DNA from: Clostridia bacterium
GTDB taxonomy: Bacteria > Bacillota > Clostridia > RUG12999
Reading direction: 5' to 3'
Assembly (NCBI GenBank): GCA_022801925.1
Contig: JAAWTG010000003.1
Location: 20,611-84,610, forward strand
Length of the DNA stretch: 64,000 nt
Both the position numbers and the translations under genes were made by a program. Positions within the stretch are counted from its first letter, which is position 1; each line of letters begins with the position of its first letter. The notes under the pieces are model-generated. The model was not told the DNA's origin. It searched no databases and saw only the letters and a program-made list of their open reading frames with translations. This document shows positions 1,628 through 47,265 of the stretch, one piece after another.

Positions 1628-1656
1628 TTGACAAAGTCATAAAATATATGTAAAAT
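1628..1656 (+). promoter_or_regulatory. Sigma-A-type promoter (TTGACA-17-TAAAAT) for the phosphorelay operon
   Basis: Exact -35 hexamer, 17-nt spacer and an AT-rich -10 read in sequence. It sits about 180 nt upstream of the response-regulator ATG. Confidence 0.5.
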
Positions 1657-1837
1657 ATAAGTGACTCAGCAAATCGTAAAACGGTTGAAGACGTGGAGAA
1701 GCAGCGCAAGCCGGCGCAGGATTTGCTGCAATTGCAAGAGGGTTTTTCAATGCAAAATTTATGAAAATATGTGCGATGATACTATCTGTCAAAACAGGGC
1801 GGCGGAACGAAGATATTATGATAATGGAGAAGTGGCG

Positions 1838-6016: not shown

Positions 6017-6170
6017 TAGGCAAACAAAAATCGAATATATTTGCGCCGTGCAGAGAAATTTTTTCGTAAATACGCACCCGTGAACTGTTTTCCATACAAC
6101 TTCGTAGCACACGTACCCTCTAGGGCACACGTACGCCCAGTATTGCAAAGGAACCTTTTCCTTGCCTTAC
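6017..6170. repeat. Copy A of a short intergenic repeat family (cores GACAAACAAAARTCGAAT, CCGTGCAGRGAAAWTTTTTTGTAA, TTGTAAGGCAAGGAAAAG)
   Basis: Shares 17-30-nt blocks with 41594-41660 and 47497-47680, found by direct comparison. Confidence 0.4.
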
Positions 6171-6889
6171 AAAATTTTACTCAAAAAAGATTTGGTGCGT
6201 TCGTTTTGCGGATGCGTGAAAATGTCGTCCGGCGAACCCTGTTCCACAATATTGCCTTCGTCCATAAACAGAACACGGCTTGCCACCTCGCGGGCAAATC
6301 CCATTTCGTGCGTTACAACGACCATTGTCATGCCTTCTGCTGCGAGCTGTTTCATAACAGACAACACTTCGCCGACCATTTCGGGGTCTAGCGCAGAAGT
6401 CGGTTCGTCAAACAACATAATTTCGGGATTCATTGCCAACGCCCGCGCAATACCCACGCGCTGCTGCTGACCACCGGAAAGCTGTTTTGGATAGGCATGG
6501 ATTTTATCGCCTAACCCCACGCGCTGTAGCAACTGGATTGCTTTTTGTTCTGCTTCCGTTTTGGGTAGCAGTTTTAATTTTGTCGGTGCAAGCGTCAGAT
6601 TTCTTAAAACAGTTAAATGGGGAAACAAATTGAAATGCTGAAACACCATTCCCATTTTCTGTCGGACATGATTGATGTTTATTTTGCGGTCGGTGATACA
6701 TTCGCCGTCTATGTATATTTTACCTTCGGAAGGGGTCTCAAGAAGATTCAAACAACGGAGAAATGTTGATTTTCCGGAACCGGAAGGACCAATCACAACC
6801 ACTTTTTCGCCTTGTTTGATGGTTTCGTTGATGCCGCGGAGGACATGGTTGTCGCCAAAACGTTTGTGTAGGTTTTCAACGGTTATCAC
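6167..6889 (-). CDS. Polar amino acid ABC transporter ATP-binding protein (GlnQ/ArtP-like)
   Basis: Walker [10 protein letters not shown], signature LSGGQQQRV, Walker [12 protein letters not shown]. Confidence 0.9.
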
Positions 6890-7568
6890 TTGCCCTCATC
6901 CTCCTTTCCAGACGCCGGAATAATCTTGATAAAATTGAGGTAATAATCAGATAAATCAGCGCCACAATGAGAAGCGGTATCAACGCTTCATATGTTTTGG
7001 AGCGGATAATATCGCCCATTTTTGTTAAATCTTCAATGGCAATATAGCCCGCGACGGCTGTTTCTTTCACCAAAACGATAAATTCGTTCGCGTAGGTCGG
7101 CAAAATATTTTTGATAGCCTGTGGCATGATGATATGTACCATTGTCTGACTGTGCGTTAGGCCCAGAGAACGACCGGACTCCATCTGTCCCTTATCCACA
7201 CCCAGAATCCCTGCGCGGATAATTTCCGCCACATAGGCGCCGCTGTTCATACCAAAGGCAATAATGGCAATCAGTGTTTTGTTGATATTCACGCTTGCAA
7301 ACACAACAAAATACATAATAAGAAGCTGTACAACAACAGGCGTACCGCGGATAACATCAATATAAAGACTTGAGAGCCATTTCAAAAACTTCACTTTGGA
7401 AATCTTCATCAGCGCAAACAAAATGCCTAAAACCGTACCCAGAAGCATTGCGCCGAGTGTGATTGTAAGTGTTGTGCCAAGTCCCGACATCAACGCTTTC
7501 CAGCGGTTGCCTTCAATCAACGATGAGTAGATTGCCTTCCATAAATCTGTATTCAAAAACCATTCCAT
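6876..7568 (-). CDS. Polar amino acid ABC transporter permease (HisMQ family)
   Basis: Multi-TM protein with an EAA-like loop. Sits in an operon with the ATPase and binding protein. Confidence 0.9.
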
Positions 7569-7644
7569 TTTTAGTCACCTTCTGTAACAGAAGGGCAGAA
7601 ATCATATAGCTGATTTCTGCCCCACTGTATTAAAATTACAGTTT

Positions 7645-8436
7645 TTATTTATCGGCTTTCTTTGTGATAATAACCTGCGTGGAGGTGTAATATCCATCAG
7701 AAAATTCCATGTTTTCTTTTCTTTCGTCTGTCACGGTCATACCTGCAACAGCCATGGTGATTTTTCCGCTGTCTACAGCAACCGGCAGAGAATCAAAGTT
7801 CATATCTTCTACCTGGAATGCCATACCCAAACGTCTTGCAATTTCCTTTGTCATTTCTACGTCAAAACCGACTACAGTACCGGCGTCATCGCGTGTTTCA
7901 AACGGCGGGAAGGAAGCATTTGTACCCATAATCAGCGTTTCACTGCCGGTCGGTTCCGGTTTTTCCGCCAATTTTTTCTGTGCTGCTTCATCTTCTTTCA
8001 GCCAGGCATTTGCAATTTCGTCAAAAGTACCATCAGCTTTCATATCTGCCAGCGCTTTGTTTACTTTTTCAATCAACTCGGTGTTTCCTTTTTTAATTGC
8101 AATTGCATATTCTTCTTGGGTCAGTTCTTCAGGCAGAATGGACAGCGTACTGTTTTTCTCAACAATTTTTTTTGCGGGCAGCTCGTCCAACACAACTGCG
8201 TCAACTTTGCCATTTGCGAGATCCATACCTGCATCCAGCGCGCTTTTGAAACGAGAAATGGTTGCGCTTGCATAGTCCTCGGAAACCAGCGTGTCGCCTG
8301 TAGTACCTTCCTGAACCGCAATTTTTGCGTCCGCAAGGTCTGCAGCTGATTCAATTTTTTTCGCAGTGTTTCCACAGCCTGCAAACAGTCCTAAACAAAG
8401 GACAGCAGCTGCCAGAATGGATAAAGTTTTTTTCAT
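7645..8436 (-). CDS. Amino acid ABC transporter substrate-binding lipoprotein
   Basis: Lipobox LFAGCGN, family-3 solute-binding-protein fold, RBS GGAGGGG upstream. Confidence 0.9.
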   Translation of the reverse strand: MKKTLSILAAAVLCLGLFAGCGNTAKKIESAADLADAKIAVQEGTTGDTLVSEDYASATISRFKSALDAGMDLANGKVDAVVLDELPAKKIVEKNSTLSILPEELTQEEYAIAIKKGNTELIEKVNKALADMKADGTFDEIANAWLKEDEAAQKKLAEKPEPTGSETLIMGTNASFPPFETRDDAGTVVGFDVEMTKEIARRLGMAFQVEDMNFDSLPVAVDSGKITMAVAGMTVTDERKENMEFSDGYYTSTQVIITKKADK

Positions 8437-8858
8437 TGTTTTCCCCTCCAGTTCGTTTTCATTGTGGTGTACAGCGTTTCAATAAAACGCCGCTGTTTAT
8501 GCCGCTGCCGGCGAGGACAGCGGTTTGCATCGCCTTTCGCGGTTGCAACTGTATTTATTGTATCATGTCCGCGAAACGGACTAATATAGTGAAAGCACAT
8601 CGCCGGTTTCGAGCGAAGCAGTAAAACACTTTGGCGGCGCTTTCTAATTCATGAAATCTTCGGACACGTGCCGAAGATTTCATACCCTACAGCGTTCAGA
8701 GTGCCGCATCACGCGGCGCGATGCGCGAGCGCAGAACGCTGTTCAGGGGGATTCCGACAAGGGGGACGGTGTGACGGCGAGTAAAACGAGCCGGAAATAG
8801 TCCCCCTTTCGAGAAAACTCTGTATTTATTGTATCATAGAAAAATGAAAAAATCAATC
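8437..8858 (-). promoter_or_regulatory. 420-nt structured leader upstream of the amino-acid ABC transporter. It contains two copies of an 18-mer with an extended -10-like TGATACAAT, several GC-rich hairpins and a terminator-like element near the RBS. Class not identified.
   Basis: Direct repeat CATGATACAATAAATACAG at 8837-8818 and 8567-8550 (minus strand). 13-bp perfect hairpin at 8651-8683. GGGGGAC...GTCCCCC helix. CGCCG..CGGCG stem followed by TTTTATT about 40 nt before the RBS. Confidence 0.35.
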
Positions 8859-10679
8859 TTATTTTTTGTTGCGCTGACGTGCGCGTTCATCGTTGTTCAA
8901 AATGCTTTTCCGCAAACGAATGCTGGCAGGGGTAATTTCCACCAATTCATCGTCTGCGATAAATTCCAGACAGTTTTCCAAACTCATAATAGTGTGCGGC
9001 GTCAGACGCAGCGCTTCATCACTGCCGGAAGCACGCATGTTGGAAACCTGTTTCTTTTTACAGACGTTGACTACCAAATCATCTGATTTTGCGTTTTCGC
9101 CCACAATCATACCCTGATAGACTTTCTCGCCGGGACCGATAAACAAACGTCCGCGCCCCTGCGCATTATACAGTCCGTAGGTGATGGATTCTCCGTCCTC
9201 AAAAGCAATCAAAGAGCCGTGGCTGCGCGTTTCAATATCACCTTTGAAAGGCTCAAAACCGTCCAGAATGGAGTTCATAATACCGTTTCCTTTGGTATCG
9301 GTCAAAAATTCGCTGCGGTATCCAATCAGTCCGCGGGAAGGAATGCGAAATTCCATGCGTGTGTAGCCGCCGACCGGTGCGTGCATGTTCACCATTTCCG
9401 CTTTGCGCGTGCCCAGTTTTTCCATGACAGGACCGACAAATTCTTCCGGCACGTCAATAATCAATTGTTCTACTGGCTCCAGTTTTTGTCCGTCCACATC
9501 TTTAAAAATGACCTGCGGTTTGGACACCTGAAATTCATAGCCGCCGCGGCGCATGGTTTCAATTAAAATGGATAAATGCAGTTCGCCGCGTCCTGAGACT
9601 TTGAAACAGTCGGCGCTGTCTGTTTCCTCCACGCGCAAACTGACGTTGGTTTCCAGTTCCTTCATCAACCGGTCGCGCAAATGGCGGGACGTGACAAATT
9701 TTCCTTCTTTTCCGGCAAAAGGACTGTTATTCACCAAAAAGTTCATGGAAATGGTCGGCTCGTCCACCTCAATCACCGGCAGGGGATCGATTTGGTCTAA
9801 CGCGCAAATGGTTTCACCAATTTGAATGTCGCCCAAACCGGAAATACATACAATATCGCCCACGCTGGCGGTTTCCGTTTCAATTCGCTTTAACCCTTCA
9901 TAAATATAGACTTTGTTGGATTTCACAGGTATGTTCGTGCCGTCCTTTTTGCAAAGGGACAATGTTTCGCCTGCATGGAGTGTTCCGCGTGCGATACGTC
10001 CCAGCGCAATCCGTCCGACATATTCATCATAGTCAATGTTGGAAATCAGCATTTGCAGCGGTGCATCCTGCTGTCCCTGCGGATAGGGAACTTTGTCAAT
10101 AATCATTTCAAACAGCGGCTGCAAATCATCATTTGGCTTGTCCAGACGTTCCATGGCAAATCCTTCGCGGGAGGAAGCATAAACAACGGGAAAATCCAGT
10201 TGTTCTTCGCTTGCGCCAAGGTCAATAAATAAATCCAGAACTTCGTCCAAAACTTCTGTGGGACGTCCGTCGCTGCGGTCAATTTTATTGACAACCACAA
10301 TGGGTTTTAAATCCAGTTCCAACGCTTTTTTCAGCACAAAACGCGTCTGCGGCATAGCGCCTTCAAAACTGTCTACCAGCAGCAATACGCCGTCCACCAT
10401 GCGCAGCACGCGTTCCACCTCGCCGCCGAAATCTGCGTGTCCGGGCGTATCCACAATATTAATGCGGTAACCATCGTGCATGACAGCGGTTGTTTTGGAT
10501 AAAATGGTAATGCCGCGTTCCTTTTCCAAATCATTGGAATCCATCACACGTTCCGCCACCTGTTGATTGACGCGGAAAATACCGCTCTGCCGCAGCATGG
10601 CGTCCACCAAAGTGGTTTTACCATGGTCAACATGGGCGATAATGGCAATGTTACGAATTTTCTCCTGTGTATAGTTCAT
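8859..10679 (-). CDS. typA: Translational GTPase TypA/BipA
   Basis: [16 protein letters not shown]1 motif and EF-G-like architecture over 606 aa. Confidence 0.95.
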
Positions 10680-46781: not shown

Positions 46782-46822
46782 AAAAACAAAAAAACTGACT
46801 GCAATTTAAACTTGCAGTCAGT
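46782..46822 (-). terminator. Intrinsic terminator forming the expression platform of the leader riboswitch
   Basis: Perfect 11-bp stem ACTGACTGCAA/TTGCAGTCAGT with a 7-nt loop, followed by TTTTTTTGTTTTT, ending 6 nt before the RBS. Confidence 0.8.
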
Positions 46823-46829
46823 CAATCAT

Positions 46830-46898
46830 TCGAATTTATTCGGTTAGACACTTAACTTTGCGTCCCCGCTTTTCAACAGGTTTGCCTAATATTCATTT
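46830..46898 (-). promoter_or_regulatory. Candidate c-di-GMP-I (GEMM) riboswitch aptamer
   Basis: Minus strand reads ...TTAGGCAAACC TGTTGAAAAGCG GGGACGCAAAG TTAAGTGTCTAACC... This reproduces the GEMM-I conserved blocks GGCAAACC, a 12-nt hairpin with a GAAA tetraloop, and GGGACGCAAAG, with the same 12-nt spacing as the Vibrio cholerae Vc2 aptamer. Confidence 0.55.
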
Positions 46899-47093: not shown

Positions 47094-47170
<77 letters not shown>

Positions 47171-47176
47171 ATATAT

Positions 47177-47265
47177 TGGTGCCGGAAACCGGAATCGAAC
47201 CGGTACGGGAGTTTCCTCCCACAGGATTTTAAGTCCTGGGCGTCTGCCAGTTCCGCCATTCCGGC
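47177..47265 (-). tRNA. tRNA-Leu (UAA)
   Basis: 89 nt with a long variable arm, anticodon loop CTTAAAA, a GTTCGATTC T-loop, and an encoded CCA end. Confidence 0.85.

Follow-up and report, generated by a model that had tools for sequence, protein, structure and literature searches.

The spacer that separates typA from an amino-acid ABC transporter operon in this Clostridia bacterium is probably a native promoter and leader split by a recent insertion, which carries the gene of a structured RNA without match in Rfam. The locus is situated in the window, the 64,000-nt stretch of DNA that was analysed and that represents core chromosome (dnaB, rplI, tilS, ftsH, secA, prfB, his genes and others). 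A preliminary description of this DNA, made by eye, had treated the spacer as one structured leader of the transporter operon. The two flanking genes that it named, typA and the amino-acid ABC transporter, are both supported by their Pfam domains, the binding protein of the operon being a family-3 solute-binding protein. The layout of the locus, from upstream to downstream, is the following.

8859-10679, minus strand: typA/bipA translational GTPase gene, the upstream neighbour (Pfam GTP_EFTU, EFG_C, BipA_C)
8828-8856, minus strand: predicted native promoter of the ABC operon, with a -35 TTGATT (8856-8851), a 17-nt spacer and a TG-extended -10 TACAAT (8833-8828)
8820-8837, minus strand: upstream copy of the probable 18-bp duplication ATGATACAATAAATACAG, spanning the extended -10 to about +1
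8567-8819, minus strand: probable 253-bp insertion, composed of the RNA gene and an 83-nt tail and present only in the window's clade
8650-8812, minus strand: structured RNA core, 163 nt (covariance models, consensus fold)
8651-8683, minus strand: P3 hairpin, perfect over 13 bp
8567-8649, minus strand: tail of the insert, 83 nt, with two further hairpins (fold, tail comparisons)
8549-8566, minus strand: downstream copy of the probable 18-bp duplication, with the TG-extended -10 kept
8437-8548, minus strand: native leader of the ABC operon, 112 nt, with three hairpins and the RBS (conserved in five lineages)
6167-8436, minus strand: polar amino-acid ABC transporter operon (Pfam SBP_bac_3, BPD_transp_1, ABC_tran), encoding the binding protein (7645-8436), the permease (6876-7568) and the ATPase (6167-6889)

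Promoter-like 18-mers had been noticed at the outset, repeated at a distance of about 270 nt and each provided with an extended -10. This observation holds. The sequence ATGATACAATAAATACAG occurs exactly at 8549-8566 and at 8820-8837 on the minus strand, 271 nt from start to start, and has two matches in 64 kb where 0.02 are expected (0 of 100 shuffles gave two). The identity stops there, as the 19-mer beginning with CATG is exact in the downstream copy only, the upstream copy reading TATG. The upstream 18-mer belongs to a good sigma-70-type promoter, TTGATT-17-TGATACAAT, which reached 9 of 12 consensus matches together with the TG in a promoter scan and which is kept directly ahead of the leader in all outgroup lineages. 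The downstream 18-mer has retained the extended -10 and shows no recognisable -35, the original one now lying 271 bp upstream.

The nature of this repeat is revealed by the comparison of empty and filled sites. When one genome per species was scanned with TypA, two close relatives, L001 and L002, were obtained, and the members of the 90% cluster of the binding protein gave 19 more loci. Both L001 and L002 align with the window base for base, save for a single 271-nt gap bounded by the 18-mer. Four lineages are free of the insert and can be ranked by the identity of their binding-protein gene, at 96.2% (L001, L134-L137), 92.3% (L139-L142), 90% (L002) and 85.5% (L143-L146). In all of them typA is followed by about 150 nt and then by the binding-protein gene, and neither the P1 nor the P3 domain of the RNA described below is found. 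One 18-mer is present in the 96.2, 92.3 and 90% lineages, and a diverged form of the promoter in the 85.5% clade. The insert was found, with identical sequence, in the nine of nine assemblies whose binding-protein gene is 99.9-100% identical to that of the window; it is complete in L081 and L128 and extends up to the contig end in L082, L083 and L129-L133. Since these are independent assemblies obtained from different samples, the insert is no assembly artefact. Because the outgroups contain one 18-mer and none of the 253 nt between, the two 18-mers are, as far as sequence comparison can tell, a target-site duplication of the extended -10/+1 region of the native promoter, and not the two evolved promoters for which they had been taken.

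The conserved part of the insert corresponds to its first ~165 nt (8812-8650, minus strand), in which three RNA domains can be distinguished: P1 (~8812-8753), P2 (~8748-8685) and P3 (~8684-8650). P1 consists of a long stem, UCGAAAGGGGGAC/GUCCCCCUUGUCGG, capped by a hairpin at its apex, whereas P2 is formed by CCCU..GCAGCGUUC/GAACGCUGUAGGG and encloses inner hairpins. Helices are found at 8800-8808/8759-8767 (AAGGGGGAC/GTCCCCCTT) and at 8734-8742/8689-8697 (ACAGCGTTC/GAACGCTGT). P3, a hairpin of 13-15 bp in the consensus, is the most conserved module, even if this conservation is partly a selection effect, four of the seven full members having been retrieved with a P3-derived pattern. In the window, its arms (8651-8663 and 8671-8683) enclose the 7-nt loop CACGTGT (CACGUGU in the RNA), read on the minus strand. 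The perfect 13-bp hairpin and the nested GC-rich helices (GGGGGAC/GTCCCCC and ACAGCGTTC/GAACGCTGT) cited in the preliminary description are all present in the sequence. They are conserved helices of P1, P2 and P3, and its suggestion of a small structured RNA is thereby upheld. The 422-nt region as a whole folds well beyond chance (z = -5.7 for the minus and -6.9 for the plus strand), as does the 253-bp insert alone (z = -6.1).

Further members were collected by two routes. A pattern scan of metagenomes for P3, followed by blastn, led to L118, L121, L101 and L109, which are homologous to the first ~180 nt of the insert. L123 and L124/L125 came to light because gene-calling programs had annotated spurious ORFs across the element; when translated frames of the RNA were used in profile searches, each search returned a single match (L123, L124), and few copies are reachable in this way. 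With the covariance models R1 and R2, the window core scores 194 and 190 bits, the six other full copies (L118, L121, L101, L109, L123, L124/L125) 115-193 bits, and a partial copy in L101, limited to P2 and P3, 57 bits. The copies are 60-92% identical, the RNA of L118 being 92% identical to that of the window. Among seven sequences, whose alignment was fitted to the model, the consensus comprises 56 pairs, 15 of them with double changes, and 94.3% of the cells pair. None of 500 shuffles reached the observed values, and controls with slid partners gave about 40% pairing and 0-4 double-change pairs. Numerous G-U pairs fix the RNA strand as the minus strand of the window. To judge from this covariation, the RNA represents a structured family, and no member of it matches any family of Rfam 15. 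An open frame spanning the insert is lacking, and across the members no reading frame keeps its start codon.

The 83-nt tail shows no significant similarity to the sequence following P3 in the six other loci compared, and in these comparisons only the tails of L121 and L124 are related to each other. The possibility that the insert is a diverged duplicate of the native leader was rejected, local and global alignments between the two being no better than those of shuffles. In a blastn search set for distant similarity, the plasmid collection yielded only chance matches of 30-40 nt and the phage collection none. Four pattern scans of viral contigs detected no member, the two matches of the last pattern being coding and failing the model. 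The look-up of the typA product of the window and of two spurious ORFs of the insert retrieved no exact record.

The neighbours of the RNA differ at every locus. In the window it stands between typA and the ABC operon; in L101 it follows ychF immediately; in L118 it is placed between a hypothetical gene and pgi; in L123 it separates a DUF2798 gene from a proA-like gene, itself followed by lon and an engB-like GTPase gene; in L124, and probably in L121 as well, it precedes a trpB-like gene. By consensus matching, P1 is preceded at a distance of 2-17 nt by a -10-like box, in many cases TG-extended. Five of the seven loci (window, L118, L121, L123, L124) have a convincing box, the candidates in L101 and L109 being doubtful. 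Downstream of the RNA, a promoter belonging to the next gene is predicted in L101 and L118, and a further -10-like box precedes the next gene in L123 and L124. A repeat spaced by 271 nt in L118 and the second -10-like box of L123 were also considered, and were judged to be due to chance or to ordinary downstream promoters. Likewise, the 18-mer resembles the promoters of the RNA in L123 and L118, but this likeness was set aside, as it reflects a clade-typical extended -10, TATGRTAYAATAWATA, which is also found in outgroup ABC promoters.

The copy in L124 and L125 (775-930, minus strand, in both) is a divergent paralog of the RNA with a predicted promoter TTGATT-17-TGATATAAT, located about 150 nt upstream of the trpB-like gene and near rny. 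A 380-aa ORF, P0122, was called antisense across it, at least the N-terminal part of which is spurious. Compared with the window copy, that of L124 is 65% identical in P1 and P2, and a 39-nt block around P3 is identical. The two samples that yielded L124 and L125 also gave the window-clade contigs L081 and L082, and from this co-occurrence we infer that L124 belongs to the same genome as the window copy. Seven window-clade contigs end at the P3 block, 240-263 nt upstream of the binding-protein gene. A repeat within one genome breaks de Bruijn assembly, and contig ends at the 39-nt block are thus what would be expected of a repeat inside one genome. The 64-kb window itself contains only one copy of the RNA. 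L101, L109 and L121 all derive from assembly ERZ777306, with similar low coverage. L118 and L137, a 96%-lineage contig whose typA site is empty, stem from the same JGI metagenome, which suggests that the sister lineage may keep an A-type RNA copy near pgi. Several diverged copies per genome thus appear to exist in this group of uncultured human-gut Clostridia.

These properties recall the sibling sRNA families of Firmicutes, such as LhrC1-5 of Listeria and the csRNAs/Ccn of streptococci, which are ~100 nt in length. As in those families, there are apparently several diverged and dispersed copies per genome, with one tandem case (L101), most copies have a promoter-like box, and a common hairpin module and C-rich stretches (GUCCCCCUU, AAUCCCCCU) are present in all. 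However, the present RNA is longer (~165 nt), most of its copies lack a canonical U-tailed terminator, and no relationship with the sibling sRNAs was found in sequence or in Rfam. The C-rich stretches are reminiscent of the anti-Shine-Dalgarno sRNAs of Firmicutes, yet according to the consensus fold they would lie within helices instead of being exposed in loops. Nor does the family resemble the C-rich sRNAs of the RsaE/RoxS type, whose C-rich motifs are unpaired: the Rfam searches gave no RsaE match, and here the two C-rich stretches are each part of a predicted stem. Calculated duplex energies between the RNA and the start regions of 41 genes of the window were uninformative, the adjacent binding-protein gene being no outlier. 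We infer that the RNA most likely works independently, as a small RNA that acts in trans or binds protein, rather than as the operon's sensor. A role in cis may still be entertained, since three of the six downstream neighbours are related to amino acids, namely the amino-acid ABC transporter, the trpB-like gene and the proA-like gene.

Among the eight copies, exact direct repeats flank two, that of the window (18 of 18 matches) and the partial copy of L101 (19 of 19), and 0 of 200 shuffles reached either value; no significant flanking repeats were detected for five further full copies tested. The partial copy (1630-1821, minus strand) stands in tandem after the full copy of L101. It comprises P2 and P3, of which P3 differs in sequence and has a T7 tail, and is bounded by the exact 19-nt direct repeat AAGTAGTTCGGTTGCGATT; the two L101 copies are 72% identical. 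The duplicated sequences of the window and of L101 bear no relation to one another, which means that the insertion is not site-specific. The insert of the window has no promoter of its own, and in the alignment its first base (AGUUUUCUCGAAAGG...) falls at the predicted +1 of L118 (TATAAT plus 7) and L121 (TGATATTCT plus 8).

One way to account for these repeats is a miniature non-autonomous DNA transposon (MITE), mobilized by a transposase whose gene lies elsewhere and whose cuts are staggered by 18-19 bp. The exactness of the duplications, which beat all 200 shuffles, speaks in favor of this mechanism, together with the small size of a non-coding element that is found at different sites in different genomes and whose presence varies between close lineages. 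Long target duplications of 15-29 bp are produced by the IS1202 group, which the insertion resembles in the same respects. However, a repeat search detected no inverted repeat at the ends of the insert, the best match seen by eye being the imperfect and asymmetric CGAAA..GG..ACTA, and the two duplication-flanked segments share no terminal sequence. The strong divergence of the copies collected, which are not near-identical, and the tail, which is not shared among the loci compared, are also unlike MITEs. The conserved part is a covarying RNA fold and not a pair of transposase-binding ends, no transposase or integrase is encoded among the 42 ORFs of the 64-kb window, and the five full copies without significant flanking repeats also count against this explanation. 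A MITE is considered unlikely.

Alternatively, the insert could be the reverse-transcribed copy of a sibling RNA, integrated at a staggered break in the manner of eukaryotic SINEs or processed pseudogenes. Indeed, the promoterless insert starts at the predicted transcript start of its homologs L118 and L121, and the partial copy of L101 ends exactly at a hairpin followed by T7, as a terminated transcript would. The two duplications, of near-equal length (18 and 19 bp) and within the 7-20-bp class of SINEs, differ in sequence from site to site, and terminal inverted repeats are lacking here as they are in SINEs. The transcript ends are nevertheless predictions, and selection for a placement behind a captured promoter could mimic the 5' end. 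The 3' end of the window insert shows neither a terminator with a U-tail nor an A-rich tail, and no reverse transcriptase was found among the 42 ORFs. To our knowledge, no mechanism for the insertion of RNA copies of this sort is established in bacteria, a setting without known retrotransposition machinery of the SINE kind, and a literature search for bacterial small RNA genes with target duplications returned nothing relevant. A retrocopy must be regarded as quite unlikely. Also improbable is a broader proposal, according to which the family would be a mobile sRNA gene devoid of terminal inverted repeats, possibly spreading in a SINE-like way via RNA at 18-19-bp staggered breaks and capturing promoters at the +1 of the host, with the duplicated -10 left for the operon. 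Little weight is given to a long-stagger DNA transposon and slightly less to an RNA intermediate, the remainder of the probability falling to some other mechanism.

The initial interpretation, in which the whole 420 nt form one leader of the ABC operon, equipped with a terminator and two promoters and functioning as an attenuator, a T-box or a riboswitch, is now very unlikely. As with leaders of these types, a strongly structured RNA is found upstream of an operon that transports amino acids, some homologs precede trpB-like and proA-like genes, and conservation and covarying hairpins are also seen in the native 112-nt leader. However, 271 of the 420 nt are absent from four sister lineages that keep the operon, which largely refutes a single leader. 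Homologs of the RNA adjoin unrelated genes, being found after ychF and before pgi as well as beside the proA-like and trpB-like genes, and in L101 and L118 a predicted promoter stands between the RNA and the gene that follows. Taken together, the unrelated neighbours and these promoters disfavor a riboswitch or attenuator dedicated to the amino-acid transporter.

The searches for known RNA classes point in the same direction. For the region, Rfam 15 gave no credible match even at E <= 10; no class had been assigned by eye either. No Rfam match was obtained at E <= 5 for L118, L121, L101 and L109, nor at E <= 1 for L123 and L124. At the Rfam gathering threshold, the whole window contains a c-di-GMP-I riboswitch and two tRNAs, all located elsewhere, and nothing more. 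A T-box core had been reported missing; the Rfam library indeed gave no T-box match, and the family alignments show no such core; a conserved terminator/antiterminator pair is lacking as well. As an intrinsic terminator, P3 is not convincing: in the full copies it is followed by GA(A/U)U(A/U)AAAAG without any U-tract, and seven of eight copies lack this tract, T7 occurring in the partial L101 copy only. The element CGCCG..CGGCG-TTTTATT, previously regarded as a terminator, does exist in the sequence. Its T-run is, however, one arm of a covarying hairpin without conserved U-tail, and the promoter/terminator scan did not call it as a terminator.

This hairpin belongs to the native leader, whose three hairpins (~8547-8525, 8523-8502 and 8493-8471) are followed by the RBS GGAGGGG (8449-8443). 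The leader is conserved with its three hairpins in six sequences from five lineages (window 8437-8548, minus strand; L001 5857-5974; L139 1385-1503; L002 1951-2071; L143 1385-1503). Across these six sequences, three consecutive pairs of the third hairpin, L3, covary. The T-run, UUUU, constitutes its 5' arm, and the variants UCU, CCU and UCC change together with their pairing partner (UUU/AAA, UCU/AGA, UCC/GGG). L3 is followed by UGUACA.. and not by U's. The leader is restricted to the clade, as orthologs of the binding protein at 84-86% amino-acid identity, in other contexts and genera, show just a plain promoter with an RBS. No Rfam family matches the leader, which may be regulatory, as a candidate cis-regulatory element of no assignable class.

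Hardly credible, finally, is an RNA gene ancestral to the spacer and repeatedly lost by slipped or recombinational deletion between pre-existing 18-bp repeats: bacteria readily delete between short direct repeats a few hundred bases apart and such a deletion leaves exactly one repeat, as observed in L001 and L002, but at least four independent and precise losses (96, 92, 90 and 85% lineages) would be required where a single gain in the window's clade is far more parsimonious, the two repeats of the window are identical while the single 18-mer already varies among outgroups (ATGA versus ATGG, ACAG versus ATTG), and neither covariance model detected an RNA copy at typA in 78 more distant Clostridia loci.

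With a recent insertion as the preferred reading, the history of the locus could be reconstructed as follows. The ancestral spacer would have measured about 150 nt and comprised one promoter, TTGATT-17-TGATACAAT, and the 112-nt leader with its three hairpins. In a recent ancestor of the window's clade, a 253-bp segment would have entered at about +1 of this promoter, duplicating the 18 bp from the extended -10 to about +1 and bringing in the ~165-nt RNA gene (P1, P2, P3) followed by the 83-nt tail. The RNA would now be transcribed from the original full promoter of the operon, while the operon itself would depend on an extended -10 devoid of a -35 and/or on read-through across the insert. Such read-through is possible, since no hairpin of the insert has a U-tail. 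In this scheme the promoters, the +1 position and the ends of the RNA are predictions. Because the recent insertion took place in the promoter, the regulation of the operon in the window's clade would differ from that of the sister lineages. For annotation purposes, what looked like a long leader of the riboswitch type is corrected to a recent promoter insertion. Empty and filled sites with an exact 18-bp duplication also provide a rare direct view of a new copy of an sRNA gene arising, the multiplication of sibling sRNAs being, as far as we know, poorly understood. If the mechanism were to be RNA-mediated, or to be a new type of long-stagger DNA insertion, it would be of wide interest.

Some additional features of the window were recorded. 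The 422-nt spacer shows no polymorphism with respect to L081 and L128, although these strains differ by 0.6-0.7% along the sequence compared and about three differences would be expected, which suggests constraint, or else a recent sweep or transfer of the segment. In the neighboring typA gene, 26 of 28 mismatches with L081 and 48 of 56 with L128 cluster in the 3' part (8919-9498). Over positions 1301-1600 of typA, L081 is nearly identical to the 90% lineage L002, and the last ~200 nt of the window typA are 7-12% different from every lineage compared. The 3' end of this gene, directly beside the insertion, is by all appearances a mosaic of recombination tracts among sister strains. Further away, the c-di-GMP-I riboswitch (46810-46896, minus strand; 71 bits, E = 6e-12) directly precedes an operon for VTC-domain, DUF4956 and CotH-kinase proteins, and the two tRNA genes are adjacent to each other at 47097-47265 on the minus strand.
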